Shown here: positions 13,036 through 59,659 of the stretch, in pieces
How positions within the stretch are numbered: the stretch's first letter is position 1
Layout of the letters: each line of letters opens with the position of its first letter
NCBI RefSeq assembly: GCF_963921235.1
Contig: NC_086097.1
Span: 80,230,001-80,294,000, forward strand
DNA: 64,000 bases
Source: Mobula hypostoma
Taxonomy: Eukaryota
Direction: 5' to 3'
The notes under the pieces: generated by a model
Databases searched by the model: none
Seen by the model: only the letters and a program-made list of their open reading frames with translations
What the model was told of the DNA's origin: nothing
Made by a program: the position numbers and the translations under genes

Positions 13036-16000
13036 GATTCCATCGGATGCTGTGTGATTACCCTGAGTGAATTGTTAATTTGCCTGTTGAAGTTGCAATT
13101 GTGGGTGGATGTATGATAAAATGGCTCGCGCAGCTCTCATTTTAAGGCAGACCAGTGCAGATGTAGTGGTAGCTACGGGTGGAGATTTCAAAGGCAGGGT
13201 TCGATTGTTTCTGAGGAATGAGGGGAAAGAGTGGTGGGATTTGGAATGTCTAATTAGTCCACATCCCCCCGTGAAAAGTGAGAATTCTGAGTTGGTATCC
13301 GCCCTTCCCTCTCTGGCAAATGAATGGAAAAATCAGGTTGGGCGGAGCGGACCTCTCAGTTGTTAGATGAGTGACAGTGCTCTGATGATGAAAAGTGACA
13401 GAGATTGATTGAAGGTTTGAATGGGTGGGCCGCTGACATTGTGAGAACCGTCAGGCTGCAGTATCCCCTAGCAACCGTGAGTGATTACCTGGAAGCACTG
13501 GAAAGTTCTTTTGGCTCAACAGGAATCCCAATGGAGCTCAAGGTGGGGTTTCAGAACATGTGTCAGGAGAAGGGGGGGAAACTTTCTGCTTTTATTTTTC
13601 TGCTAGAGAGGCGGCTAAATTGCTTGTGGCACAGAGGGGTCATTCAGGCGGCTGAGGTGGATCAGTTAAGAATGGACCAGATAGCCAGGGGCGCCCAGTC
13701 CCAGGATCTGATTGCTTGGGGTCTCCGTCAGTCTCATAAGACATGCCCCCCTCCATCTTTTGTTGAGCTGATCAGAGAGGTACGGGAAGAGGAGAATGCA
13801 GAGGAGGCATGGTAGGACGCTGTCAGCAGGGTACAGTCCTCGGTAGCAGTCCCCTGCGGTGAACTGACCACAGATAGCCTACCCTGGGGAGCGGTAGAGG
13901 AGATTGCGGCAGAGTTGAGAACGGAGATATATCGGCTGTTATCAGCGGGTGTGACCCCCCCCCCCATATGATGGAGCTGATGGGGGTTGGATTCCCCAAC
14001 GGGACGAACAATGCGGGGGGCTGCTGGCAGCAGGTGTCACACCAGAAGGAGAGTGAGCCCCTGGGTACCTCAGCAAGGAGAGTCGCTGGGAAAACCTAGA
14101 GGAGACCCAGTGAGGGAACGGTCTGGTGTCTCTGGGGGAACACGTTCCCTGCAATGTACTAAGGAACCCCTGAAAGTGAAAGATCCTATTCCTGAAGGCT
14201 TAATTAGTCCATACTCCAGTATTTCGCTATGGATAGAGGGTATTTATGCCAAAGCCATACTCGACTGAGGGTCACAGGTCACGTTGTTGAACTGCTCGTT
14301 TTACAGCTGGTAACTGATGCATTTACCACTGACACCATTCAGGGCGCTGGAGATCTGGGGGCTTAGTGCTAGTGATTATCCATACAATGGTTATTTGTCA
14401 GTGAAGTTGGAGTTCTCGGAGACCAATGTGGGAGTGTCTGAGGTCTTTGATACAGTGATGCTGGTTTGTCCGGACCCTGTTGAGAAGGGCGACATTTCAA
14501 TTCTGGTGGGGACCAACACCCCTCTCGTGAGGAGGCTCATGGGGGCCTTGCAAGGAGAAGGCTGGTGAGAGCTTTCTGGGAACATTGTCCGTGCACCCGG
14601 GGATTTGAGCTGCTTTTGAGGAAGCGCGTGGCAGCATTGGGCCGGATACCGAATTTAGACGAGGGACTGTGTGGTTCATCCAGTCGAAGCCAATGGTAGT
14701 ACGGCCCAGGGAAGTAGCGAGAGTGATGGAGACCCCCAAATTTCCCGGAGTGCCCGAGGGCGAAGCCCTCTTAGTGGACACTCTGGAAGACCACGAGGGG
14801 GAGTCGGGATTTCCTGCTGGGGTACTGGTGAGGCCCGAATTGCAGAAGCCCTCGGTTGTACAGGAACACAGGATGGCAGTGATTGTCAGGAACACTACGA
14901 AGAGGGAGGTCACCTTCAAGCGGGGGATGCCCCGGCGCATTTGTTCCCGGTGACGGTAATGTCTAGTGCCGCTGTGAGGCACGCCGGGGAGAAACTATCG
15001 GAAAAGGGGGGAGAGTTGACCGTTGAGTCGTTCAACTTCGGGGACTCCCCGGTTCCTGCAGGTTGGAAGAGGAGGTTGGTAGAGAAGATGTTGAAGCTGG
15101 AAGGTGTCTTTTCCACTGGCGAGTTTGATGTGGGTTGTTCCAAGAGCACGCGTCACACTGTCTGGGTGACTGAGGATATCCAGTTCAGAGAAAGATCGCG
15201 GTGACTGGCCCTTGCAAAGGTGGAGGATGTTCGGCAGCATTTGTGTAAGTTGAAGGAAGCTGGGATCATCACCGAGTCCCGAAGCCCCTATGCGTTCCCA
15301 GTAGTAGTGGCCCGGAAGAACAGGAATGTACATGTGTGTGGACTATAGGACACTGAACAGGCACACCGTCCCTGACCAGTATACTGTCCCGAGGATCGAA
15401 GATGCGCTGGCCTGTCTGAGTGGTGCGAAGTGGTTCAGTGTGCTGGACTTGAGGAGTGGATATTACCAGATCCCCATGTGTGAGGCTGACAAAGAGAAAA
15501 CGGCATTTATATGTCCTCTGGGACTTTTCCAGTTTGAAAGGATGCCCCAGAGCATCTTAGGAGCTCCTGCAACCTTTCAGCGGCTCATGGAGAAGACAGT
15601 GGGGGGATATGAACTTGCTTGAGGTATCGGTATATCTGGATGACCTCATAGTATTTGGATCCACTTTGGAAGAACATGAAGCAAGGCTGCTGAAGGTGCT
15701 GGGCTGCCTGAAAGCTGAAGGGTTAAAACTTTCCCTGGACAAGTGCCAGTTCTGCCAAACGTCTGTTAGCTATGTTGGGCACATAGTCTCATGAGATGGA
15801 GCAGTTACAGATCCTGCTAAGGTAGAAGCGGTTACCACTTGGCCAAGACCCCAGATGGTGAATGCCCTGCACTCGTTCCTCAGGTTCTGTGGTTACTATC
15901 AGAGGTTCATGAAGGGCTACGCGAAAGTGAGTCACCCGTTGAATCAGCTTCTGTGCAGTTACCCTCCCTTGGGGAAGAAAGGACAGGAGGATGGAGAGCA

Positions 16001-19000
16001 TCTTAACCCGTTAGAGCCCTTTGGACCGAGGTGGGAAGTAAAGTGTGAGGAGGCCCTTCAGTCGCTGAAGAAGCTGCTGACTCAGGTGCCGGGACTGGCT
16101 TTTGTGGACCCCCGATTATTGTATGTACTGCACACAGATGCCAGACGTGAGGGACTAGGGGGCATTCTGTATCAGGATCAGGGCTCTGGGTTGAGGCCCG
16201 TTGCATTTGTCAGCCGGAATCTGTCACCTTCTGAGAAAAACTATCCCACACACAAGTTGGAATTTCTGGTGTTGAAATGGGTGGTGGTGGATAAGCTGAA
16301 TGACTACCTCTACGGGGCCAAGTCTGAGGTGAGGACGGACAACAACCCCCAACTTGTATTCTGGCCTCAGCGAAACTGGATGCCACAGGCCATCGGTGGT
16401 TGGCGGCGTTGTCTGCCTATGATTTCAGCCTGAAGTATCGGACGGGAAGCAGCTACATTGATGCTGATGCTTTGTCCCAACAGGCGCATGAGGGACTGGT
16501 CAGGGACGAAGAGCGGGAGATCGTTCCTGCCCTGGGGGTGAAGGCCCTGTGTCAGTTTGCCATCACCATGAAGGCAGAGGAAAAGGAGGGGCAGGATCGA
16601 GCAGTGGATCAACTGGGAGCTTCTGATGACGCCATCCCCCAAGTTTACTGTAACCTGGCTGCTCTGAAGACAAATCAGCTGCCGGAATTGAGTTCTGGGG
16701 AAGTTGCAGCTGCTCAGCGAGATGATCCTGGCATTGGTACCATTTGGGCTGTGGTTGAAAAGGAAGACATGGCTCAGGTGGAGAAGACAAAACATGTGTC
16801 AGTGCCTCCATTACTGTGGGAATGGCCTAGGTTGGAGTTGAAGAACCAACTCTTATACGGGGTTACATCAACCCCAGACTGACCCCGGCGTTGCCAGCTG
16901 GTTCTGCCCGAGAAGTATCGGAGGATGTCGTTGAAATCACTTCATGATGATTCCGGACATTTGGGGGTGAAAAAGACTGATGGATTGCTCAGAGAACTGT
17001 TTTTCTGTCCCCGAATGAAGTCAGAGGTCGAAGAATACTGCCAGTTGTCCAATCGCTGCATATGGCGGAAGACACTGCCTACGCGAGCAGCTCCCTTGTC
17101 CCACTTGCAGGGTGCAGGGCCTCTGGACCTGGTGTATATGGAGTTCCTGTCAATAGAACCTGATCCCAGCAACACAGCAAATGTCTTAGTCATCACAGAC
17201 CACTACACCAGATATGCTCAGTCTTTTCCTACCAAGGACCAGAGGGTGTTGACAATGGCAAAAGTGTTATGGGAGAAGTACTTAATCTTTATGGCCTTTC
17301 CGGGTGGATACATAATGATCAGGGATGGGATTTCGAGAGTAGACTCATCCATGAGTTACTGGGTATGCTTGGAGTTGAGAAGTCGAGGACCATGCCCTAT
17401 CACCCACAGGGTGATCCCCAGCCAGAGAGGTTTAATCAGACCTTGCTAGACATGCTCAGGACCCTGGAGATCAGCAAGAAGAGCAAATGGAGTCAACATA
17501 TTGGGCATCTGGTTCACTCTTGCAACTGTACACGAAATGAAGGTACTGGGTACTCGCCATATTATCTGATGTTTGGGTGTGAGGCGAGGTTGCCTATTGA
17601 CCTTTGTTTTGGGACTGACAAGGGTGACTTACCACTGAAGACTTATCTGAAGTATGTGTCTGACATGAGAAGAGAATTGAAAAGGGCTTATGAATTAGCT
17701 GGGGTGACAGCTGCCAAGCAGAACCAAGGAAATAAAAGGAGGTATGATCAAAAGGTGAGGTTCTCCCAACTCCTGCCGGGAGACAGAGTCTTCATAAGGA
17801 ATTTGGGGTGACCTGGAAACCATAAGTTGGCTGACCGCCGGGCAGCTACGCCCTATGTGGTGGAGAGTCAGATGCCAAACCTACCAGTTTTCCGGGTGAG
17901 ACCAAAGGATGGGAATGGACTGTTAAGATTCTCCATCGAAACCACCCGCTGCCTCTGGGACAAGAGGTGCAGGTAGACCCAGAGCCTGATTTGGAGCCTA
18001 CACCTAGTAAGAGGACGCTGCGGAAATGCGGAGCGACTGCAGGGCCCACAGTGGGAGAGGTTAGGCCGGTCCCCACCCCTGAGGGGGATACTGATTCAGT
18101 GGATGAGGGCCAGGATGTGTGATATATACCGCCTTTCACTAACTCTCCACTGATTGAGGAAGAGACTCCTGGCCCTTCTCCCGTTGAGTCAGGTGAGTGG
18201 GGGGGGGCTATCTGTGGGCAGCCTGGGTTGCAGTGGGACTCTGCAGGGGAGGCCATGGGACAGATGGGTATGAGTTAGAGGTGGGCCAAGTGATAGGGCG
18301 GGGTGGCCACACCATGTAGACTGGAAGTATCCCCAGTAGTGTCCGAACCTGAAGAGTTAGGTGAGGGGGTGCAGAGTGTGACCCCTACCATTTTGGGGAG
18401 CTTTGTCATTGCCTTGTGTTGGACTTGGATTGGACTTTGTGTTGTGCAGGAAGGGCTGGCAAATTATCTCAATGTAATGAGAACATGACTGAATTTGGTG
18501 TGGGGAACAGTGTAATGGCTTCTCTGTAAGGTTCCAGTGCTGATGTAATGGTTTCTCTGTAGCAGCAATGTTTGGGTTATGACTAGAGATAACGGGGCAT
18601 GCTAGCTAATGAACAGGGTATCTTTTTTCTTGTGTGTCTTGGAGCTGGGAATTCACGGGTTTTTCTTTTGGCCGGGGAGAGATGAGGAGGGAAGACGTGA
18701 CCGGAGAGAGTTGGGAGACTGCCGGACAGAGTGGACCTGGAGTGAGGATCCGAAGGTCAGTGACGATTGGAGGAGGTCGATGGTGGACGAACGGCCTTAT
18801 CAGTGAGGTCCAACCTTGCACAATAGACTGTTTCATGAGAATGGGCCCTTTTCCTTTTTTGTTTTCTTTACTAACCACGTGGTCAAATTCGGAATTATAA
18901 AGCTTAATCGTTTAATCGCATATTGTGTACTGTTTGTTATTTCAGGGTACTGATTTGTAACAGGGGACACATCGCGCAGCATCCACCCAAACGAGATTTC

Positions 19001-39079: not shown

Positions 39080-40630
39080 AGTGAATAAGCACTGGGGCCT
39101 GACAGAATATTCCCCAGGCTGCTCCACAAGGCAAGGGAAGAGATTGCTGAGCCTCTGGCTAGGATCTTCATGTCCTCACTGTCTACAGGAATGGTACCGG
39201 AGGATTGGAGGGAGGTGAGTGTTGTCCCCTTGTTCAAAAAAGGTAGTAGGGATAGTCCGGGTAATTAAAGACCAGTGAGCCTTATGTCTCTGGTGGGAAA
39301 GCTGTTGGAAAAGATTCTCAGAGATAGGATCTATGGGCATTTAGAGAATCATGGTCTGATCGGGGACAGTCAGCATGGCTTTGTGAAGGGCAGATCGTGT
39401 CTAACAAGCCTGATAGAGTTCTTTGAGGAGGTGACCAGGCATATAGATGAGGGTAGTGCAGTGGATGTGATCTATATGGATTTTAGTAAGGCATTTGACA
39501 AGGTTCCACACGGTAGGCTTATACAGAAAGCCAGAAGGCATGGGATCCAGGGAAGTTTGGCCGGGTGGATTCAGAATTGGCTTGCCTGCAGAAGGCAGAG
39601 GGTCGTGGTGGAGGGAGTACATTCGGATTGGAGGGTTGTGACTAGTGGTGTCCCACAAGGATTGGTTCTGGGACCTCTACTTTTCATGATTATTATTAAC
39701 GACCTGGTTGTGGGGGTGGAAGGGTGGGTTGGCAAGTTTGCAGACGACACAAAGGTTGGTGGTGTTGTAGAGAGTGTAGAGGATTGTCAAAGATTGCAGA
39801 GAGACATTGATAGGTTGCAGAAGTGGGCTGAGAAGTGGCAGATGGAGTTTAACCCGGAGAAGTGTGAGGTGGTACACTTTGGAAGGACAAACTCCAAGGC
39901 AGAGTACAAAGTAAATGGCAGGATACTTGGTAGTGTGGAGGAGCAGAGGGATCTCGGGGTACATGTCCACAGATCCCTGTAAGTTGCCTCACAGGTGGAT
40001 AGGGTAGTTAAGAAAGCTTATGGGTGTTAGCTTTCATAAGTCGGGGGATAGAGTTTAAGAGTCACGAGGTAATGATGCAGCTCTATGAAACTCTGGTTAG
40101 ACCACACTTGGAGTACTGTGTCTAGTTCTGGTTGCCTCACTATAGGAAGGATGTGGAAGCATTAGAAAGGGTACAGAGGAGATTTACCAGGATGCTGCCT
40201 GGTTTAGAGAGTATGAATTATGATCAGAGATTAAGGGAGCTAGGGCTTTACTCTTCGGAGAGAAGGAGGATGAGAGGAGACATGATAGAGGTATACAAGA
40301 TATTAAGAGGAATAAATAGAGTGGATAGCCAGCGCCTCTTCCCTAGGGCACCACTGCTCAATACAAGGGGACATGGCTTGAAGGTAAGGGGTAGGAAGTT
40401 CAAGGGGGATATTAGAGGAAGGTTTTTTACTCAGAGAATGGTTGGTGCGTGGAATGCACTGCCTGAGTCAGTGGTGGAGGCAGATACACTAGTGAAGTTT
40501 AAGACACTACTAGACAGGTATATGGAGGAATTTAAGATGGGATGTTATATGGGAGGCAAGGTTTGAGGGTCGGCACAACAATGTGGACTGAAGGGCCTGT
40601 ACTGTGCTGTACTATTCTATGTTCTATGTT
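39080..40630 (+). mobile_element. Relatively young CR1, 5'-truncated
   Basis: Long open frames QHGFVKGRSCLTSL..YMDFSKAFDKVPH..PQG..KFADDTK; (TTCTATG)n tail; nearly identical to 52624-53505. Confidence 0.95.
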
Positions 40631-47669: not shown

Positions 47670-49578
47670 CAGGCTGTTGTCATGGATGACTTCCACATTC
47701 CTAATATTGATTGGCACCTCCTTAGTGCAAAAGGTTTAGACTGGGGCAGAACTTGTTATGTGTATACAGGAAGGATTCCTGATGCAATTCCTAGACAGGC
47801 CGACTAGAGGAGAGGCCAATACTGGATCTCGGGCTTGGCACTGAACCTGGTCAGCTGTCAGATCTCTCAGTGGGTGAGCATTCTGGAGAGAAAAAAAACA
47901 CAACTCCCTGACCATTACCATTTGCTTTTGGAGAGAGAAAAGAGCAGATGGGTATGGAAAGCATGTAATTAAGAGAGGGGGAATTATGATGCAGGAACTT
48001 GGAAGCATAAATTGCAACAGATGTACTCAGGGAAATACACAACAGAAATGTGAAGGTTATTTAGGGAACACTTGCATGGGGTTCTGAATAGGTTTGTCCC
48101 AATGATGCAGGGAAAGGAACCATGTCTGACAAGAAATATGGAACATCTGGTTAGAGAAAGAAGAAGCAGAATTAAGTTTTAGGAAGCAAGGATCATACAG
48201 AGCTTTAGAGAATTACAGAGTAGTGAGGAAGGAGCCTAAGAATGGACTTAGGAGAGCTAGAAGTGGACATGAGAAAGTCTTGATGAGTAGGATTAGGGAA
48301 AACCCCGTCAGTCTACATATGAAGAGCAGAAGGATGACTAGAATGAAGGTTGGATTGATCAGAGGTAAAAGAGGAAACATATACCTGGAGTCAGAGGAGG
48401 GAGGGGAGGTCCTTAATGAATACTTTGCTTCAGTATTCTCCCACAAGAGGGATCTTGACAAATTTTAGGGTAGCATAGGATGGGCCATTATGCTGAAACA
48501 TGTAGATATTAAGAAAGAGGATGTGCTGGAATTTTGGAAAAACGTTAGTATAGATAAGCCTTTGGGGTGAAACAGGATACACCCCAGATTACCACGGAAA
48601 GAGATCACTGCACCTTGGTGATGATCTTTGCATCCTCGTTGGGCACAGCACTAGTAGCAGAAGATTGGAGGTTGGCAAATGTTATTCCTTTCTTCAAGAA
48701 AGGTAATAAGGATAACCCTGGGAATTATAGACCAGTGAATAGGTCAGTGATAGGCAAACTATTGGAGAGGATTCTTCGAGACAGGACTTACGAGCATTTG
48801 GAGAAGCATAGTCTGATAAGGGATAGTCAGCATAGCTTGGTGAGGGGCAGGATGTACCTGACGGGCTGATTGAATTCCTGAGGAAGTGACAAAACAAACT
48901 GATGAAGGCAAAGCAGTGGATGTGGTGCATTTGGATTTTTGTAAAGCATTTGACAAGCTTCCCCATGGTAGGCTTATTCAGAAAGTCAGGAAGAATTGGA
49001 TCAAGGGAAACTTGGCTGTAAGGATTCACAATAGGCTTGACCACAGAAGGCAGAGGTTGGTAGTAGATGGAACGTATTCTGTCCGGAGGTCCATGACTAG
49101 TTGTGACCCTCAGGGATTGGTTCTGGGATTGCAGCTCTTTTAATTTTTATCAAGGACTTGGATGAGGAAATGCAAGGATAGGTTAGTACCAATTGCAGAG
49201 AACACAAAGCTTGGTGGTGTTATGGATTGCATATACGGTTGTTGTAGATTACAATTGGACATTGATAGGTTGAGAAATGGCAGATGTTCAGCCTGGAAAT
49301 GTATGAAGTGATACATTTTGGAAGGCTGGACATGAAGGCAGAGTACAGGGTTAATGGCAGGATTCTTAGCAGTGTGAAGGAATATCGGGGTCTCGAGGTC
49401 CGTGTCCATAGACCCTCAAAGTTACCATGCAAGTTGATAGGGTGGTTAAGAAGGTGTATGGAGTGTTGGCCTTCAGTAGTCAGGGGATTGAGTCTAGCAC
49501 TCGTGAGATAATATTGCAGCTCTGTAAAGCTCTGGTTAGACCACACCTAGCATACTAAGTTCAATTCTGGTTGCCTCA

Positions 49579-50041
49579 CGTTACGGGGAGGCAGATTCGC
49601 AGAGTTGGTAATTGGGTCAGAAGGCACTGAATGCAAGTAAGCATGTTAACTATTTATTTACAAACAAACAAACAGTGGAACACTCAACCAAGCATCTAAG
49701 TCAAACATGTACTTTTCTAAGTCCTCCAAGTTACATAACTACAACATTAAACATTCAACAAACAGGTACTTCATCTCTCTGTGTGCATGGGTCTTCCCAC
49801 CTGCAGCACACTTACCCAATGGTTCTTTAGCCCTCGTCACTGCCCAGTCTGAAGGGAGCCCCTAGCAAAGAAAAAGAGCCCCGCCAGTGCTATTCTTATA
49901 CCTGTCGGGGGGGGGGGGGCCTGAAACTGGAAGCCTCCAACCAATGGGAGAGAGCTGGCACATCAATCAAATGGGCCAATCAGTGACCAGCACGTCGGAA
50001 GCAGCTTTCGACTGGCCGGTAAGTTACCCCTTCACTTTATA
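49579..50041 (-). repeat. ERV 3' LTR
   Basis: Homologous to 58556-59092; preceded on the minus strand by the purine-rich GAAGGGTGAGA; TATAAGAATAG TATA-like box on the minus strand. Confidence 0.85.
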
Positions 50042-50050
50042 TCTCACCCT

Positions 50051-51280
50051 TCAAGAGAGGTGACACTGTGACAATTCGGTCCTCTGGCTAGTATAACTCC
50101 CTTCTAAACAACATATAGAATGCAAAACTACAATACCCAGCACTATAAGCCCAATAGTCCCCACCCAGTGTATTATGGTAGTCCACTTGCTTCCCCCTGG
50201 GGTGTAATAGCTATGGAACATGTCCCTCACTTTCTGAATATCATCCACTGACTGTCAGATGTGATTAATATTCCCTGACTTGTTAAGAATGTAGATGCAG
50301 CATTCTTGACTGATAACAGCACAAGTATCATCTTTCTCTGCGAGCAGGTAATCTAAGGCCATCTGATTCTGCAAGCCAGCCGTTCAAATAGCCATCATTT
50401 TGGCCGATACTCAGATCAGCGCATCCTCCGCGTGGTTAAATGCTATGGCTGTCTCGTTAGGTAGTACCTCTATCACAGGGGTCATACATATCAGTTCCCG
50501 GGACAGTCTGGATGCACCATACCGGGAGAGCTATTATCCAAAGCCTTTATGCCACTGTGATAGCCCTCTTCCTACGCGGACCATCAGGGGCAGGGTGCTC
50601 ATCCAGTGCACTGAAGTGGACTATGTACGACAGCCCATAGCAGCAATCGTAACCCCCTTCCCACGGGGAGCCCTGGGTAGGCCCGGGAGACCCATATCCA
50701 GTAAGTGCTATTCAGTGTCCAGGGAGTGTCACCGCACCGTTCCGCGTAGACGCAGTCATCTCAGGATACTGCTTCACTGTGTCCCACTGACTGGTTGGAC
50801 CTGTGCTTATCACACTGCATACACCAACATACCTTTTCCTTCCTCGTCGGCTGGGCAGTCACTTTCAGAGTCGGGACCTTTGGGTTAAACAAGTCATAAG
50901 TAGGGATACACCAGCCCTTAAAGCACTCACTCCACCGAGGGTCACTAGGCCTCAAGTACTTTAAGGCCGTTACTACACGACAGGGTGAGGATGACTGGAG
51001 TGAACTATTCCCTCCCTGCTCCCCCCAAAACAGAATACCAAAGTCAGTGGAGATGGACAAGTTGCCCCAACAGTCTTTTTCCTTGTCATTAAAGGGGACT
51101 GGTATTGATGGTAACCCGTATGCAGCGTGGGCCGGAGCCCACATACAAACCCAGCAATCCGACATGTTACTCCTGTTTGCATGTTCATTTGCCATCCACA
51201 AGAATGTGTTATAGGAGCTCCCACCGCAGGTTGAGATCATCACCATTGCCGTCAGCATCCATCACTGTGCCATTCCACAG
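50051..51280 (-). pseudogene. env: ERV env pseudogene (gamma-type SU/TM)
   Basis: NTFLWMANEHAN..SDCWVC (CXXC about 51156); furin site RRKR 50576-50565; ISD LQNQMALDYLLA about 50374; CAVISQECC (CX6CC) about 50323-50297; hydrophobic anchor IIHWVGTIGLIVLGIVVL; several stops. Confidence 0.92.
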
Positions 51281-51710
51281 TGTAGGAGGGACAAACTCCT
51301 CCCTCCTGGTTGACCATTGGGTACTTAGACATGTCATTCTCTGTTCCCCTGGTAACACTACCCACTGCCTATTTCCGGGTCCACCTGGCACAATCCCCCA
51401 TGTCCCACTGGCCCTGTGATTGCTGCACCCAAACCTTCCCCAATTCCTTTTCCAACTCCACCTCCTTGAGCTCCGGAGGGTCCGACACTGCTGAACGCTG
51501 CGGTATCAGTGACCCACCCAGTCTCGCTGGCCAGGAGTTCAGGACTCCATCCCTTGCTGCAGCACATCCAGCCACGTCTGGAGGGTATGGGTAGTAGCTT
51601 AACCTGTTACTTCAACGAACCATTCATGTGATCGATCTGTCCTTCCTCCTGTGGGTAATATGGGATGTGAAGCACCCATGAAATGCCAGACTCATCTCTC
51701 TCCAGAAACA
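51281..51710 (-). pseudogene. pol: ERV pol 3' end (integrase core end and C-terminal domain)
   Basis: GISWVLHIPYYPQEEGQIDHMNGSLK, TLQTWLDVLQ..LNSWP and GKVWVQ..GPGNRQWVV resemble ERV-L-type integrase. Confidence 0.8.
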
Positions 51711-51714
51711 AATT

Positions 51715-52424
51715 TAATCCATGCTTGTTCAAGGAATGAGCCGATGTCTGGTTGATATAAGCGGCAGGCCAGATTAAGAAGGTGGGGCCTCCAACTCGCT
51801 GTTCTGTGAGGTTTAATCATCTCCGTGCTGCACTGAAGCTGTGGCCTGCAACTAATGGGCTCCTGGACCAGCTGCGGTGATGAACTGGATCCATGGCTGC
51901 GGACTTACTTTCATGGACTTTAGTTCTGATTGTTCAGGTCACTGTTCCATGACATTTACTCAAGCTCTGCACTGAACTATAGGGCTCTCTTTGCAGACTT
52001 CAGAACAGAAACGCTGTTTGCTAGCGGTTACTGTTTGCATGATGTTCTTTTTTCATTGCACATTGGGTGGTCAACAGGCTTCTTTTTTATGGGTTATTTA
52101 GTTTTTTATGGTTTTACTGTGGTTTTATGGGTATGATGTGTTTTTTATTCTCTGCATGTTGGGTGTTAGACAGTCTTCTATCTATAGTTTTTTTTTGGGC
52201 TTCTTTGCTTCGTGGCTGCCTGTTAGGAGACAAATCTCAAGGTTGTATAATGTGCACATACTTCAATAAGAATATACTTTGAACTTATTTGTTTACTTTT
52301 TATTATTTGCATGACTTATTCTTTTTTGAACATTGAGTGTTTGACAGTCTCTTTTAAATAGGTTCTATTTGGGCTTTTTTGTTTTATGGCTACTTGTAAG
52401 AAGAAGAATCTCAAGATTGTACAT
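51715..52424 (+). repeat. Composite repeat with Rex-type tails
   Basis: Two AATCTCAAG(G/A)TTGTA tail motifs; the second is completed at 54122-54170. Confidence 0.5.
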
Positions 52425-54121
52425 CATCACGGTGAGTGCTGGCGATGACTGACCCAGGTGCGGAGGAATGGAGACTCCCATGTAGAGACGGAAACAAGAG
52501 GTTACACATAGGAATTCCATCAGAACATCGTTGGCACGATTGAGCGACTCCACAAGACAAATCATTCTCCACACGAGGACCCCACGATGAGCCTTAAATG
52601 GGAATCCATTTGAAATAATCATAGTTGGTGGTGTTGTAGATAGTGTAGAGGATTGTCAAAGATTGCAGAGAGACATTGATAGGATGCAGAAGTGGGCTGA
52701 GAAGTGGCAGATGGAGTTCAACCTGGAGAAGTGTGAGGTGGTACACTTTGGAAGGACAAACTCCAAGGCAGAGTACAAAGTAAATGGCAGGATACTTGGT
52801 AGTGTGGAGGAGCAGAGGGATCTCGGGGTACATGTCCACAGATCCCTGAAAGTTGCCTCACAGGTGGATAGGGTAGTTAAGAAAGCTTATGGGGTGTTAG
52901 CTTTCATAAGTCGAGGGATAGAGTTTAAGAGTCGCGATGTAATGATGCAGCTCTATAAAACTCTGGTTAGGCCACACTTAGAGTATTGTGTCCAGTTCTG
53001 GTCACCTCACTATAGGAAGGATGTGGAAGCATTGGAAAGGGTACAGAGGAGATATACCAGGATGCTGCCTGGTTTAGAAAGTATGCATTATGATCAGAGA
53101 TTAAGGGAGCTAGAGCTTTACTCTTTGGAGAAAAGGAGGATGAGAGGAGACATGATAGAGGTGTACAAGATAATAAGAGGAATAGATAGAGTGGATAGCC
53201 AGCGCCTCTTCCCCAGGGCACCACTGCTCAATACAAGAGGACATGGCTTTAAGGTAAGGGGTGGGAAGTTCAAGGGGGATATTAGAGGAAGGTTTTTTAC
53301 TCAGAGAGCGGTTAGTGCTTAGAATGCACTGCCTGAGTCAGTGGTGGAGGCAGATACACTAGTGAATTTTAAGAGACTACTAGACAGGTATATGGAGGAA
53401 TCTAAGGTGGGGGCTTATATGGGAGGCAGGGTTTGAGGGTCAGCACAACATTGTGGGCCGAAGGGCCTGTACTGTGCTGTACTCTTCTATGTTCTATGTT
53501 CTATACATAAAACCCATGCTAGTCACAATTAACTTAACAAGATAAAATAGAAAGCACAATGACATAATGACTCTAGTTAAGACAACAATTAGTAAACGTA
53601 TGTGCTTGAGAAGCCTAGAAGTCCAACACTCTACAGCTTGCTGCAGTGGTCATGGCAGTGCCTCTGTCCCTGAGCCTGGGACCTGACAGCCCAGAAAGCC
53701 TTCGGGAACTTGAGACAAGGCTGGGAAATTCAATACAGACCTGATGTTTTCAAGACAGGGCTGGAAAATTTGAAACATTGCATATAACTCAGAAACATTG
53801 AGTATCCTGGGAAACCGAATGCTTCTTGTTGACCCAAAGAACCCTGAAAAAAATCTTGAACATACACTGGAGAAGCTCGGAACATACACTTGGAATTTAC
53901 ACTCAGAACATAAACTTGATACGCTCGGAACATAGACTTGGGACACTTGGGACATGAACTGAGTAAAGAAGGCATCTTAGCCTCTAGCCAACAAGATTAA
54001 CCAGAAAGCACAAGGGCTGAACGACTTTAGTTAAGACACAAATTAGTAAACACAGGTGTTTGAGAAAACTAGAAGCTCGATGCTCTACGCCTCACTGCAG
54101 AAGTCTACAGGGCTCATGGCA
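52425..54121 (-). mobile_element. Second copy of the non-autonomous LTR family (3' LTR split by a CR1)
   Basis: Direct repeats 53506-53659 and 53990-54121; 52425-52620 is homologous to the LTR end at 25180-25307; interior of GAACATA(C/G)ACTTG repeats. Confidence 0.7.
52624..53505 (+). mobile_element. Young CR1 3' fragment
   Basis: 219-aa open frame WAEKWQMEFN..LVRPHLEYCVQFWSPH; (TTCTATG)n tail; CATA flanks. Confidence 0.95.
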
Positions 54122-54214
54122 GTATACTGTAGAGGGCACATACTTTGATAATAAATATACTTTGAGCTTTGACACTCTTCATGTGGGAAGGTGGAATCCT
54201 TCAACATGGGTAGA

Positions 54215-55150
54215 CACCTGCAACCCTGCAACCAGCACGTAAGTGCCACTACAAAGAAGGCACAGCAGAGCCTCGATTTTCTAAGAAGTTTGTGCAGGTT
54301 CAGTGTGCCATCTAAAACTTTGACAAGCTTCTATAGATGCACAGTGGAGAGTGTCCTGACTGGTTGTATCATGGCCTGCTATAGAAACACCGAAGCCGAG
54401 GAAAGGAAAAGCCTGCAATAAGCAGTGGATGCAGCCCAGTCCATCACAGGAAAAGTCCTCCCCACCACTGAGCACATCTACAAGGAATGCTGTCACAGGA
54501 AAGCAGCAGGCATCAACAAGGAATCCCACCATCCAGGCCATGCTCTCTTCTCACTGCTGCCATCAAGGAGTTACTGGAGCCACCATCGATGCTGAACTAA
54601 TTCCACCTATGGACTCACATTCAAGAACTCTACAACTCATATTCTCAGTATTATCTATAGTATTTACTTACATATTAGTACTGCAACGCGCCCATACAAA
54701 AAGATCTTTAATGAGAACATTAAATGAAAGGAAACTTAAATTCCTGGGCTATGTCATCAGAAAGGGAGAAATAGATTGCCTTACATTACAAGGCCGTATG
54801 CCTGGGAAACGCGGAAGAGGAAGGCAAAGAAGAAAATATATGGACACTGTGAAAGAACTAACAGATCTAAGTGTGTGAGATATCATTGACGCTGCGTAGG
54901 ATTGTTCGATGTGGAAAGCCATGATCGCCCAAACATGTAACACGCAAGGCACATGAAGAAGACTTACATATTTACTTATTTTTATTTGCATTTTGTCTTC
55001 TTTTGTATGTTTGTTATTTGTTCGACTTTGTGTGTAGTCCTCTAATGATTCTGCTGTACTTCTTTGTTCTCCTATCAGTGCCCACAAGCAAATGAATCTC
55101 AGGGTGATACATACATACTTTGATAATAAATTTGCTTTGAACTTTGAACT
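54215..55150 (+). mobile_element. Rex1 3' fragment
   Basis: KKAQQSLDFLRSL..FYRCTVESVLTGCI; Rex tail at about 55090-55150. Confidence 0.85.
54677..54961 (+). mobile_element. RTE 3' fragment (second family)
   Basis: RKLKFLGYVIRK..GKRGRGRQRRKYMD; GAAGAAG tail; TSD ACTTACATATT at 54666-54676 and 54962-54972. Confidence 0.9.
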
Positions 55151-55424
55151 TCCTTCAAAGTCTTTGCAAGTAACTGCAAAACTCAGAACAAACAATTAAT
55201 TCCCACTGTGGAAAACTTCAACACATTTTTCAAAGAATAAGGAAAGGAAAGATTGCATGGCGGCCCTGACACGTTAGCATACTCACACAGCTGCTTAAAG
55301 ACACCGCCCTCCTGCAAGTTCACTTCACCAAGCTGTGAAATATTTCAATCAGTCACCTTTTCTGTTGAACCGTAGGATTAATCCACTCTTCCGATACAGA
55401 TTTAACAAACTAACGTAGACATTG

Positions 55425-55475
55425 TGTGCACGCGCACACACACACAGACACAGACACAGACACACTCTCTCTCAC
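55425..55475. repeat. (CA)n/(CACAGA)n/(CT)n microsatellite
   Basis: Visible directly in the sequence. Confidence 0.9.
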
Positions 55476-55690
55476 TCAAGTGCAGGGCAAACGATCCCCT
55501 CCCTTTGGGGGTGGGTGGTACGGGAAGGCCCCACCCACCACCCCAACCCTGCTGCTGCTGGAGGTCTTCCAATGCCTTTTGGAGGGACTCCAGCAAGGGA
55601 TATAGGTTACCCTGATGAGGAATCCTGCGAGGGATCAAATGTACCCTAATCTGTGGAGAGCTTAGAGGATGAACCTCCTCCCTTAACAGT

Positions 55691-55768
55691 TCCCTTCAGA
55701 ACAGTGTTTGCCCATCTCTTTGGACCAACTGACCCATGTTCAACTGCTGTTCACATGGAAGCCTTTCC
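55691..55768 (-). rRNA. 28S rRNA-derived fragment (about 78 nt, non-functional)
   Basis: Minus strand GGAAAGGCTTCCATGTGAACAGCAGTTGAACATGGGTCAGTTGGTCCAAAGAGATGGGCAAACACTGTTCTGAAGGGA matches the conserved LSU segment ..GGGTTCCATGTGAACAGCAGTTGAACATGGGTCAGTCGGTCC... Confidence 0.9.
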
Positions 55769-55871
55769 AGCAACCGAATGGCTGCGTTTATGGTACCCCC
55801 GAATGCCAGTCTCATTAACGACAGCACCATCCTTTCAAGTGGGGAGCTGCTTTCATTACTAAATACCCTAC

Positions 55872-57388
55872 TATAGAGTCACAGTGAACTACAGCACAAA
55901 AGCAGTCCCTTTGGCTAATCTAGTCTGTGCCAAACCATTTAAACTGCCTACTCACATTGACCTGCACCTGAACCATTTCCCTCCATACCTTTCCCATTCA
56001 TGCACCTATCCAAACTTCCCTTAAACCTTAAAATTGAAATTGCATCCACCACTTGCACTGGCAGCTAATTCCACACTCTCACCACCTTTCACCCATAACC
56101 CATGACCTTAAACCTTGGTTGTAGTGTCACCCATCCTCAGTGGAGAAAGCTTGACTGCATTTACCTGATCTATACCCCTCATAATTTTGTATATTTCTAT
56201 CAAATCTCCCTTAAATCTTCTACATTCTAGGAAATAAATTTCAAACCTATTCAATCTTTCCTTTTAGCTCAGGTCCTCCAGTCCCGACAACATCCTTGTA
56301 AATTTTATCTGTACTCTTTCAGCTATTTTACATCTTTTCTGTAAGTAGATGATCAAAACTGCACACAATACTCCAAATTAGGCCTCACCAACATCTTATA
56401 CAACTTCAACATAACATCCCATCTCCTGCACTCAACACATTGATTTATGAAGGCCTACGTGCCAAAAGCTTTCTTTACGACACTGTCTACCTGTGACAGC
56501 ACTTTTAGTGAATTATGGACCTGTATTCCCAAATCCCTTTGTTCTACTGTACTTGCCAGTGTCCTTCCGCTCACTGTGTAAGATCTTACTTGGTTGGTGT
56601 TCCCAAAGTGCAACCCTTCACATTTGTCTGCATTAAATTTCCTCTGCCATTCTTCAGCTCATTTTTCCAACTGGCCCAGATGCCTCTGGAAGCTTTGATT
56701 GTCTTCCCCATTGTCCACTGTACCCACAATCTTGGTGTCACCTGCACATTTGCTGGTCTAGTTAACACATAATCATTCAGATTATTGATATAGATGACAA
56801 ACAACAACAGACTTAGCACTCAACTCAGTGGCACTCTACCAGTCACAGGCCTCCAGTCAAGAGTGACAGCCATCTACCACCACTTTCTGGCTTCTCCCAC
56901 AAAGCCAATATCTAATCCAATTTACTACCTCATCTTGAATGCCAAGTGACTGAACCTTTTGACCTAACTCCCATGTGGGACCTTGTCAAATGCCTTGCTG
57001 AAGTCCAGGTAGCCAACATCCACTGCCTTGCCTTCATCAGCTTTCCTGGTAACTTCCTCGAAAAACTCTCTATGATTGGTTAGACACCACCTACCACGCA
57101 CAAAGCCATGCTGAGTATCACTAATTAGTCCCCTGAGTATCCAAATATCCATATGTCCGGTAACTTAGAATATCTTCTAATAACTTTCCCACCAGCCTTT
57201 AATTTCCAGGTTTGTTCTTAGTGCCTTTCTTAAACAGCAGAACAACTTTAGGTATCCTCCAATCTTCTGGTACCCAACCTGTTGCTAAGGATGATTTAAA
57301 TATCTCTGCTAGCACCCCTGCAATTTCTACACTTGCCTCCCACAGGGTCCGAGGGAAGGCCCTGTCAGGCCCTGGGGATTTGTCCACC
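55872..57388 (-). mobile_element. CR1 5'-truncated insertion in the ERV gag
   Basis: VDKSPGPD..VPEDWR, QHGFVRGR..LDFSKAFDKVPH; 3' tail at about 55872. Confidence 0.9.
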
Positions 57389-58533
57389 AAGGCTGGAGTT
57401 AGTTTGGAATCCTCTGGCAGGCTATCAATATCACTGTTAAAACCTGTAATTAGAGCCCACTAGCGAGGGGCTCTCATCCCTTCCTCTACTGTGCTCCACT
57501 CAGCCCAGGACTTTAAATCCCACTCAAGGAGAGAAGGTACCTGACATTGACCACCGCTGTCATCCGATCCCATAAGGATTTATTACCCTCATGGGGAGCG
57601 AGCAGTATCAAAGTGTTATTGACCACGTGTTGGGACAATAGCTGCCCCCTACTAGATAGGCTTATTCCGGTGCCTCCCTCTTCCCATATCCTCAACAACC
57701 CATGTGGCCAGAGGCTTTCCTGGCTTCTGCCTGCAGCTATCCTGCAATCCCACCAGTTCCTTGGCAGAGAACTCTCATGGTGTCTGTCATCTCAGAAGGG
57801 CCTATTGTACTACTCCCTCCACATTCCTCCTCAGCCTCCTCCTGTCCTGTGAGGGTCAGAGGGTCCAATGGCCAAAGCCCCCATGCTGGATATGGGACTA
57901 ATGGCTCGTACTGTCTTGGGTGCGTCAGTGGGAGGACGATCATTGCAAGGATCACAGGATTCTGCTTTACTCACGCTCCCCCATCACCATCCAGCCAGCT
58001 GGCCCTATCTCCCATCCACACGTTGGGATCATCCTCCCACAGCATCAGGGCTGGGACCTTAATGGGATCCGGTTGCCAATTAGCCCATCGGGCAACCTCT
58101 AATTGCTGCACCTTCACTAGCCGACAGGCTATCTCTGTACCATTGTCTTCTAGCTCTTTGGCCTGGGTATATGCCAGTCAGGCTCTTCCCCCATGGTGCA
58201 GCACCTCCACCTCATTTTAGAGTTGCTCTCTCCTGCTCACTCTGTGCGATCATCTTGTGCTGGTGCTTTACGATGGCTGCCAGCAGCCCTTTGGCTCGTA
58301 TTCTTGTCTGGGAACCATACCTTGTTTAAGATGGATACAATGGTGTGTCTGATTCCCAATGAGCCAGATTGTCTGACCAATCCACTGGTATGCCATGTTC
58401 TGCCAGTAGACTGGTGAGACTGCTGAATCCAGCACTGATGGCGCTCCACCCTGGGACTCAGCCTCCTCCCACGAGCGGTTCTCTTGCTTGTTCTTCTTAT
58501 CCTTGAGCTCTTTAAACTCCTGTTACACCCACT

Positions 58534-58553
58534 GAATCCCGCCGACTACACCG
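58534..58553 (-). promoter_or_regulatory. tRNA-Ser primer binding site of the ERV
   Basis: CGGTGTAGTCGGCGGGATTC, 2 nt after the 5' LTR; 17/20 match to the tRNA-Ser complement TGGCGTAGTCGGCAGGATTC. Confidence 0.85.
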
Positions 58554-58555
58554 TG

Positions 58556-59092
58556 TGTTATGGAAAAGCAGATTCCATAAATAGGACAGAAGATACTGAT
58601 TGTGAATAACCGTTACCTATTTACTTACAAACAAGCAGTGAAACACTCAGACAAAGATTTATGTCAAATAAGTTCTCACCTAAGCCCCTAAGTTACAAAA
58701 CTATGATGTTAAGTATTCAATAACATTTCTAACTTAAATATGTACTTTGTTAAGTCCATCCAACTTACACAACTGCAACGCTAAACATTCAACAAACATA
58801 ATACTTATCTCCAAGTGTTTACACGGACCTTCCTATCCATAGCACAGTTTCTCAATGTTTCTTCAGTCTTGGTCATGCCCCAGTCTGAAGACAGCCCCTA
58901 AGGAAAAAGAGACAGAATGTCCCACCCACACTATTCTTATAGCCCTGGGGGTGCCCAAAACCAGAAGCAGGAGCCATGGCATGAAAATCAGCCAATGGGA
59001 GAGGGTTGTCTCACCCTTTGCATGGGTCAATTAGTGACCAGCATGGTGGAAACAGCTTTTGACCAGCAGGTAAGTTAACCCTTCATGTTACA
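58556..59092 (-). repeat. ERV 5' LTR
   Basis: TGTAACA...TAACA on the minus strand; homologous to the 3' LTR; internal duplication of about 65 bp. Confidence 0.85.
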
Positions 59093-59659
59093 CCTTATTA
59101 TACAAACAATGCGAAAGCTTTAGAGGGTATACAGAGGAGATTTACCATGATGCTCCCTGGATTAGAAAGTATGTCTTATGAGAATAGGTTGAGCAAACTT
59201 GGCTTTTTCCTTTTGGAGCCAAGGTAAAACATAAATCGATTGATAGGGGTGTACAAGATGATAGGAGGCATAGATAGAATGGATAGCTAGTGACCTTTTT
59301 CCCCAGGGTAGAAAATGACTATTACAAAGGAGCATAACGTTAAGGTCACTGGGGCAAGTACAGGGGGATGGTGTCAGAAGTAGGTTTTTGTTAAAAAACA
59401 CAGAGTGGTAGGTGCGTGGAACACACTGCCAGGGATGGTGGTAGATATAGCTACATCAAGGACATTTAAGAGACCCTTACATTGGCACATGGATGAATGA
59501 AAAATGGAGGGATATATGGGAGAGAAGGGTAGATTGACCTTTGAGTAGGCTAAAGGGTCACAATTTTGTGGGGAAAGGCCCTGTACAGTTTTGTACTGCT
59601 CTCTGTTCTGTTATCATGGGGTTTGTCTATTTTGATCTTTCCCCTGGCTTGGGTATTGA

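Follow-up and report, generated by a model that had tools for sequence, protein, structure and literature searches.

Lying on the minus strand of a 64,000-nt stretch of the Mobula hypostoma genome (contig NC_086097.1, positions 80,230,001–80,294,000; referred to here as the window) is a single 9,514-bp insertion at window positions 49579–59092, exactly the span given in an earlier note made from the letters of this DNA alone. Read in its own direction, the insertion is composed of a 5′ long terminal repeat (LTR), a primer-binding site (PBS), remnants of gag, integrase and env, a polypurine tract and a 3′ LTR. It is, with high probability, the fossil provirus of an endogenous retrovirus (ERV) family that is confined to rays as far as seen, and its affinity with class III (ERV-L/ERV-S-like) elements is supported by comparison with the sequences of its relatives.

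One integration event within a LINE

At the two ends of the insertion are the 5′ LTR (58556–59092, minus strand, 537 bp) and the 3′ LTR (49579–50041, minus strand, 463 bp), delimited by BLASTN and by MAFFT alignment with one another. BLASTN pairs positions 58728–59085 with 49695–50034 at 69.9% identity over 359 nt (E = 3e-36), and in the MAFFT alignment the homology runs from TGTAACATG / TATAAAGTG through ...CCATAACA / ...CCGTAACG. The two LTRs are ~71% identical, with a Kimura two-parameter (K2P) distance of 0.38 (448 aligned sites; 80 transitions, 50 transversions). They start with TGTAAC.../TATAAA... and end with ...ATAACA/...GTAACG, and TATAAGAATAG and a CCCATTGG box are common to both. 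Inside the 5′ LTR is a 72-bp tandem duplication (58687–58798) that the 3′ LTR lacks.

Flanking the insertion are the two copies of a target-site duplication (TSD), CCTCA on the left (49574–49578) and CCTTA on the right (59093–59097). The left copy aligns to CCTCA in two intact copies of the host long interspersed nuclear element (LINE) in the same window, and the right copy aligns to the same five columns. Because both copies occupy the same LINE columns and the LINE, compared with its two uninterrupted copies, resumes on either side, the five base pairs have been duplicated, and positions 49579–59092 represent one integration event. The paired LTRs and the 5-bp duplication with the host element (named CR1 in the earlier note) running across it had both been recognized from the letters and stand as described; an origin of the two LTRs from unrelated insertions is contradicted by the TSD and by the unbroken course of the LINE, which show a single insertion.

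At a mammalian neutral rate the K2P distance of 0.38 would correspond to ~86 million years by an LTR clock that is uncalibrated. For cartilaginous fishes, in which slower rates are assumed, the age would be greater still, and we take it only as being of the order of 10^8 years.

Two bases past the 5′ LTR, on the minus strand, starts the PBS (58536–58553, minus strand), which reads CGGTGTAGTCGGCGGGAT. It agrees at 15 of 18 positions with the complement of a tRNA-Ser(AGA) gene's final 15 nt with CCA added, the gene being from the same genome. Among 16 sister copies the score ranges from 10 to 17 of 18, with the PBS columns reading mostly TGGCGTAGTCGGCAGGAT and showing CpG-type changes. When the tRNA-side pattern is extended into the T-loop, all nine of its exact genome matches lie inside tRNA-Ser(AGA) genes called by ARAGORN. 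Directly upstream of the 3′ LTR is the polypurine tract GAAGGGTGAGA (50042–50052, minus strand). Both the serine primer and the polypurine tract had been read correctly in the earlier note.

Coding remnants and sister copies

The gag remnant is in two parts, located by tblastn and translation. The gag body (57385–58512, minus strand) runs across three frames, no longer has a start codon and includes ...KVPALMLWEDDPNVWMGD as well as the major homology region (MHR). The C-terminal part (55313–55874, minus strand) resumes past a nested CR1-like LINE (55875–57384, minus strand) and in sister copies such as L010 and L016 runs on from the gag body without a break. The nested LINE is absent from sisters, matches other LINE copies of the window and gives a weak match to RVT_1. 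Residues 17–103 and 126–184 of P0002, a 1,520-residue Gag-Pro-Pol of a stingray, match the window gag by tblastn with 31–33% identity (E = 5.6e-11). The MHR of the window copy reads ...RQKPGKPLATW/LLRIWEEGG across one frameshift, and the corresponding pattern of P0002 is QKTSEPLAAWLLR. The gag motifs by which the element was first noticed are all present, spread over the three frames, WLLRIWEEGG being recovered across that frameshift (KPLATW / LLRIWEEGG). Within the C-terminal gag remnant is a (GT)n/(CA)n microsatellite (55440–55480, minus strand).

Pol is represented in the window copy by integrase from its last catalytic residue onward. This frameshifted remnant (51290–51745, minus strand), located in the same way, consists of GISWVLHIPYYPQEEGQIDHMNGSLK followed by GKVWV...WVVLP, the integrase tail KVWV...WVV of the earlier note, and matches residues 1402–1451 of P0002 with 54% and 47% identity (tblastn span 51545–51687, E = 8e-9). 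No protease, reverse transcriptase (RT) or RNase H is found in the window copy. An integrase core read by eye upstream of 51745 was rejected, the stretch being absent from sister copies and without a match to P0002. Pfam recognizes no retroviral family in 19 open reading frames (ORFs) of the window, nor in eight gag, integrase and surface subunit (SU) pieces at E values up to 10. The succession of gag, integrase and env on the minus strand, as the earlier note had it, is upheld by tblastn and translation.

Only ~125 codons separate the glutamate of the integrase DDE triad from the start of env. The env remnant (~50054–51273, minus strand) comprises SU and the transmembrane subunit (TM) in three frames with stops, and was delimited by translation and motif scan. 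It has a signal-like start, with NMSDCWVC ~35 residues from it (CWVC at 51145–51156), an RRKR motif (50565–50576), LQNQMALDYLL...CAVISQECC with its CX6CC (CX6CC at 50297–50323) and a membrane span (~50120–50190), all on the minus strand. By these motifs it is a small gamma-type Env. A 37-residue TM piece of the window matches Pfam TLV_coat with 17.3 bits (E = 0.002), below the cutoff, and the TM of the sister copy L048 reaches 29 bits against a cutoff of 22.5.

A profile built from eight SU pieces retrieves 28 proteins at E ≤ 1e-3, three of them at E ≤ 1e-10, among 1.84 billion representatives. TLV_coat lies at or above the Pfam cutoff in 13 of the 28 and below it in one more. Of the 20 that were looked up by name, those bearing one come from sawfish, catsharks, zebra shark, stingrays, sturgeon, pike, hagfish, lizards and sea turtles; the Env proteins found in this way are 400–470 residues long and carry TLV_coat (sawfish, catsharks, stingrays, sturgeon, lizards and turtles). 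Matches bear NCBI names of the HEMO/ERVPABLB-1-like and ERV3-1-like kinds, often ‘ERV group PABLB member 1 (HEMO) Env-like’. These names are automatic annotation. The profile, made from ray copies, also reaches P0037, P0033 and P0027 (hagfish, pike and sturgeon), which indicates that the Env domain with an N-terminal CXXC is spread well beyond cartilaginous fishes. Among the 20 matches looked up by name no Xenopus protein appears and no homology to a Xenopus SU was detected, in agreement with the report that SU is not conserved even among frog elements, although the position of their CWIC motif is (PMC8278194).

The provirus belongs to a large family. In the searched genome (3.48 Gb, 200 contigs), gag DNA has 51 matches at 66–75% identity (40 of 246 candidates scored), and a 166-residue SU ORF has at least 154 at 31–84% amino acid identity (150 of 1,096 candidates scored). 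Copies are ~70–80% identical in env nucleotides, which is of the same order as the 71% between the LTRs of the window copy, and the order LTR–PBS–gag...env–LTR recurs in sister loci.

Searched by tblastn with P0002, nine of 20 gag-anchored loci contain remnants of protease, RT, RNase H or integrase, with RT in seven, including decayed W.MTVDYR and Y.D-type motifs. Pfam finds no retroviral domain in 68 ORFs of at least 120 residues from these 20 loci, where its matches are RVT_1 in two (unclassified), ALKBH8_N in two and one chance match; a conclusion drawn from this search, that all copies lack pol, was rejected on the tblastn result. An integrase ORF of a sister copy gave no match by word-based protein search or against PDB sequences. 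In the related locus L048/L051, RT (with YIDD), RNase H and the integrase core run straight into env, and the RNase H ORF of this locus matched ray proteins, P0002 among them.

Taking the place of everything from protease through the integrase core in one sub-lineage, that of the window copy, is a segment of ~180 bp, referred to here as segment S (55150–55330, minus strand), which was aligned with L029, L030 and L031 (L029:3600–3760; L030:4420–4550). It joins the integrase tail directly in L029, L030 and at least 15 further loci, and the junction is spanned by 17 of the 40 scored genome matches, the query's own locus included. Among the 20 gag-anchored loci, only L015 and L021 show any match to segment S, each a partial overlap, and pol-bearing copies hold none. 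Sharing of the junction by many loci, taken as independent insertions, suggests that the pol-less form itself multiplied. Segment S ends in a long pyrimidine run with TTTTGCAG and in this resembles a splice acceptor; it may be a captured fragment.

Class affinity

The class of the window copy is read from its relatives, and the nearest annotated proteins come from rays, in keeping with the cartilaginous, non-amniote host that had been supposed. The stingray protein P0002 contains RVP, RVT_1, tether, RNase_H and rve domains, and a domain search finds no dUTPase in it. Its motifs are DTG, DYRRLN, YIDD, HX4HX28CX2C, DX57DX35E and the MHR. YIDD with HX4HX28CX2C are the states of ERV-L and of XtERV-S, an element of Xenopus tropicalis, in Table 2 of PMC8278194, and the motifs of P0002 agree with the ERV-L and XtERV-S columns of that table. 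The same paper gives YVDD and HX3HX29 for foamy virus, and YVDD and HX3HX32 for murine leukaemia virus (MLV). A Cys-His box (CCHC) is absent from P0002, P0005, P0006 and P0007; the gag of the window copy is too decayed to judge.

Searches with the pol region of P0002 place it among class III-like proteins. The nearest tier, at 45–49% identity, comes from amphibians, a killifish and a lungfish, and most of its members carry a Pfam dUTPase; bird proteins follow at 35–38%, and class I-labelled Pols (with MLVIN_C or Gag_p30) are 23–28% identical, with at most 214 bits. P0005 has a dUTPase behind rve, the position described for ERV-L (PMC1224870). The pol region of P0002 has 46% identity with P0059, from Xenopus tropicalis. 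The motifs of P0059 lie 17 positions below those printed in the XtERV-S paper (14 below for the protease DTG), and P0059 is the only one of 128 proteins compared in which two XtERV-S cloning primers, translated, are present; by these sequence marks it is an XtERV-S-type Pol. The Gag of P0002 is homologous to the Gag parts of bird and amphibian proteins of this group (E = 1e-13 to 5e-4), and against PDB sequences it gives a chance coiled-coil match only. The nearest PDB entry to its integrase is foamy-virus integrase, with 83 bits, the next reaching 66. A Pol-alignment scan of viral contigs for exogenous retroviruses found no relative.

Serving to place the family is a tree of 38 rows, comprising six remnants of the window family, the L051 remnant and 31 proteins hand-picked from 121, with two Gypsy-like rows as outgroup and L014, L018 and L023 omitted. 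All six window-family rows fall in an eight-row subclade (100% support by the Shimodaira–Hasegawa-like approximate likelihood ratio test, SH-aLRT), which is held within a ray clade of ten rows (99% SH-aLRT). The ray clade lies inside a 28-row class III-like clade (100% SH-aLRT) together with XtERV-S and dUTPase-bearing elements of amphibians and fishes. Within it the ray, XtERV-S-like and dUTPase-bearing clades form a three-way polytomy, so that the lineage does not emerge as the deep-branching one that the earlier note had envisaged. The rows labelled class I are grouped apart from these in a clade of their own (99% SH-aLRT), and the Gypsy-like outgroup rows are distant. The tree, the 5-bp TSD, the TGT..ACA LTR ends, the homology to P0002 and its motifs, and the identity of the nearest Pols all support a class III, ERV-L/ERV-S-like affinity of the gag and integrase remnants, as was first proposed from the letters. 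Grouping with Gypsy elements or with epsilon- or gammaretroviruses, the outcome that would have told against it, is not seen among the rows of the tree, where the pol remnants lie away from class I-labelled Pols and the Gypsy-like rows are far off.

Several points weigh against this assignment. No fragment of the window itself reaches a Pfam cutoff (the best, TLV_coat, has 17.3 bits and E = 0.002), so the class rests on relatives, and P0002 is from another ray species and only 31–33% identical to the window gag. Against PDB sequences the RT of P0002 scores about equally with MLV RT (151.6 bits) and foamy protease–RT (146.7 bits). The tree is a quick IQ-TREE search with SH-aLRT support only; its window-family rows are 26–50% filled, with breaks read through as X, and its rows include no mammalian ERV-L, HERV-S, foamy, snakehead or exogenous retrovirus. 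TSDs are legible in only four copies, of which the window copy and L009 match at four of five positions, L015 at three of five and L014 at none. Finally, precomputed Pfam annotation assigns Gag_p30 to two bird matches near P0002 and TLV_coat to two, probably through the merging of gene models.

Judged by env, the provirus would be a class I (gamma- or epsilon-like) ERV. The TM has LQN...CX6CC and the SU CXXC, sister copies contain TLV_coat, and for the RT of P0002 the score with MLV RT slightly exceeds that with foamy RT. The features expected of the rest of a class I element are nevertheless missing from the window copy and its relatives: the TSD is 5 bp and not 4 bp, YVDD, a nucleocapsid (NC) zinc finger and Gag_p30 or MLVIN_C are not found, and the relatives instead have YIDD, DYR and HX4HX28CX2C and lack a Cys-His box. 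Class I-labelled Pols, 23–28% identical to P0002 compared with 45–49% for the group of XtERV-S and dUTPase-bearing elements, also form a clade of their own. A class I origin, rejected on the motifs of P0002, the Pol identities and the tree, is thus very improbable.

Elsewhere in the window, in a G+C-rich stretch at 14–18 kb, is a separate Gypsy-like LTR retrotransposon (15332–15610 and 17278–17631, plus strand), whose RT (MCVDYRTLN...) and integrase pieces give weak matches to P0002 and P0005. The presence of such an element at ~15–18 kb, and the lack of any intact retroviral domain in the window copy, would fit an LTR retrotransposon of Ty3/Gypsy type, or a patchwork of unrelated insertions with coincidental LTR-like ends. 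We give this hardly any credence, as the TSD and the continuous LINE mark a single insertion, the LTR–PBS–gag...env–LTR order recurs in sister loci with an env that is retroviral, and the relatives have RVP, RT, tether, RNase H and integrase as in retroviruses, with Gypsy-like rows distant from them. A class III fossil provirus is the reading that we retain.

History of the family and related elements

The virus from which the family descends would have had a class III (ERV-L/XtERV-S-type) gag-pro-pol, primed by tRNA-Ser(AGA), with an integrase that produced 5-bp target duplications. Its Env would have been small and gamma-type, ~400–440 residues, with a CW[IV]C near the SU N terminus pairing with CX6CC of the TM, and no dUTPase would have stood behind the integrase. 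Integration of the window copy into the LINE may date to the order of 10^8 years ago. In its sub-lineage protease, RT, RNase H and most of integrase are replaced by segment S, and, as many loci share the S-to-integrase junction, the pol-less form presumably multiplied by means of enzymes that complete relatives provided in trans. Later LINE and other insertions split the copy, which is now wholly non-functional.

Inserted at the junction of segment S and integrase is a block (51746–55150) that is absent from sisters, L029 and L030 joining the two sides directly; in the genome search the window accordingly appears as two pieces, S and integrase, 3.4 kb apart with LINE and other repeats between. 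The block holds a young LINE copy (52591–53500, plus strand), a direct repeat with 454-bp spacing (53536–54105) and a LINE-tail-like ORF (54360–54878, plus strand), and a weak RVT_1 match falls within it. The 3′ part of the LINE copy (52624–53500) is 94.5% identical over 877 nt to positions 39755–40630 and far younger than the provirus, a sign of LINE activity in this family much later than the retroviral insertion. Sister proviruses have been interrupted as well. Nested in one is a 296-residue open frame (L029:2263–3150, plus strand) that looks like a Penelope-like element, its GIY-YIG domain falling slightly short of the cutoff with 22.4 bits. Another has, within its 3′ LTR, an inserted 759-residue open LINE ORF (L018:6606–8882, plus strand; RVT_1, E = 9.5e-36), from a LINE that may have been active recently.

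The closest described relative of the ray element is XtERV-S (Yedavalli et al. 2021, PMC8278194). As that paper describes it, XtERV-S shares with the ray family an ERV-L-type gag-pol, 5-bp TSDs and LTR ends TGT..ACA, and its PBS is for tRNA-Ser(AGA/TGA), that of the ray family being for tRNA-Ser(AGA). Like the ray relatives, it has a Gag with an MHR and without a Cys-His box, together with YIDD and HX4HX28CX2C. The Env plan is also the same: the ~440-residue XtERV-S Env has CWIC ~40 residues from its start, preceded by an N-glycosylation sequon, and further on a basic cleavage site, an immunosuppressive domain (ISD) and CX6CC. Internally deleted copies are reported from the same frog genome, as they are found in the ray. 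The two differ in that XtERV-S has a dUTPase-like region behind integrase, which the ray elements lack, and in that XtERV-S is intact and young, in a frog, whereas the window copy is very old and broken, in a ray (PMC8278194).

The name ERV-L refers to a leucine PBS. The RT and integrase motifs, 5-bp TSDs and Gag without zinc fingers of the ray family are those of ERV-L (MuERV-L, HERV-L), and ERV-L-like members of birds and amphibians supply its nearest Pol and Gag homologues. ERV-L, however, lacks env and has a dUTPase after integrase, whereas the ray family has an env and P0002 has no dUTPase, so that in the strict sense (dUTPase C-terminal of integrase, no env) the ray family is not ERV-L.

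Mammalian ERV-S elements (HERV-S/HERV18) are described as having a serine PBS, an env and no identifiable dUTPase, within class III (PMC8278194). This is the combination seen in the ray family, as had been pointed out from the letters and is supported by that paper, the likeness being one of description rather than of sequence. It is possible, if rather doubtful, that the ray elements are a ray-specific class III lineage that shares these traits with mammalian ERV-S without special common descent, or equally that they are nearest to the snakehead-retrovirus-like elements of ‘clade Huo’. The polytomy of the ray, XtERV-S-like and dUTPase-bearing clades would allow either, and the comparison took in no HERV-S sequence. 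Class III ERVs and snakehead retrovirus are reported to share one clade that extends to all major vertebrate groups (Xu et al., PMC6001957), and ERVs of the elephant shark cluster with snakehead retrovirus in a survey that, as presented, names only snakehead-like and epsilon-like lineages there (PMC4422223). An affinity with snakehead retrovirus is countered by the lack of an NC zinc finger in P0002, one being reported for that virus (PMC1224870), and by the tRNA-Ser(AGA) PBS and N-terminal CW[IV]C Env that are common to the ray family and XtERV-S.

The suggestion that the element might be undescribed holds in part. The literature searched yielded no description of such elements in cartilaginous fishes, with Repbase, Dfam and survey supplements, which may hold a related consensus, outside the search; for cartilaginous and jawless fishes, a survey of 2023 describes ERVs that are spuma- and epsilon-like and lack Gag or Env domains (PMC10699275). 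The same architecture has, on the other hand, been in print for frogs since 2021, as XtERV-S, and NCBI already lists predicted proteins of these ray elements under the labels ‘uncharacterized’ or ‘ERV Env-like’. So far the layout of an ERV-L-type core, a gamma-type env and a serine PBS is in print only for frogs and, as remnants, for mammals. The ray provirus is a known type in a new host class. For annotation of the locus it is of little consequence, the copy being dead.

A review presents XtERV-S as something unusual and recent, a class III backbone that took up a class I env (PMC10536682). Finding the same architecture, with the same serine primer, in a large and very old ray family carries it into cartilaginous fishes and speaks for the combination being old. 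The ray family also offers a second, distant anchor for dating the loss of env and the gain of dUTPase in ERV-L. We tentatively suggest, as a possibility of rather low probability, that class III gag-pol with a small gamma-type Env, an N-terminal CXXC and a tRNA-Ser primer marks an old and widespread lineage rather than a recent frog recombinant, one already present in cartilaginous fishes and of which mammalian ERV-S would be another remnant. Env-less ERV-L would then be derived and its dUTPase a later gain, and the dUTPase-less ray clade would show the earlier state.

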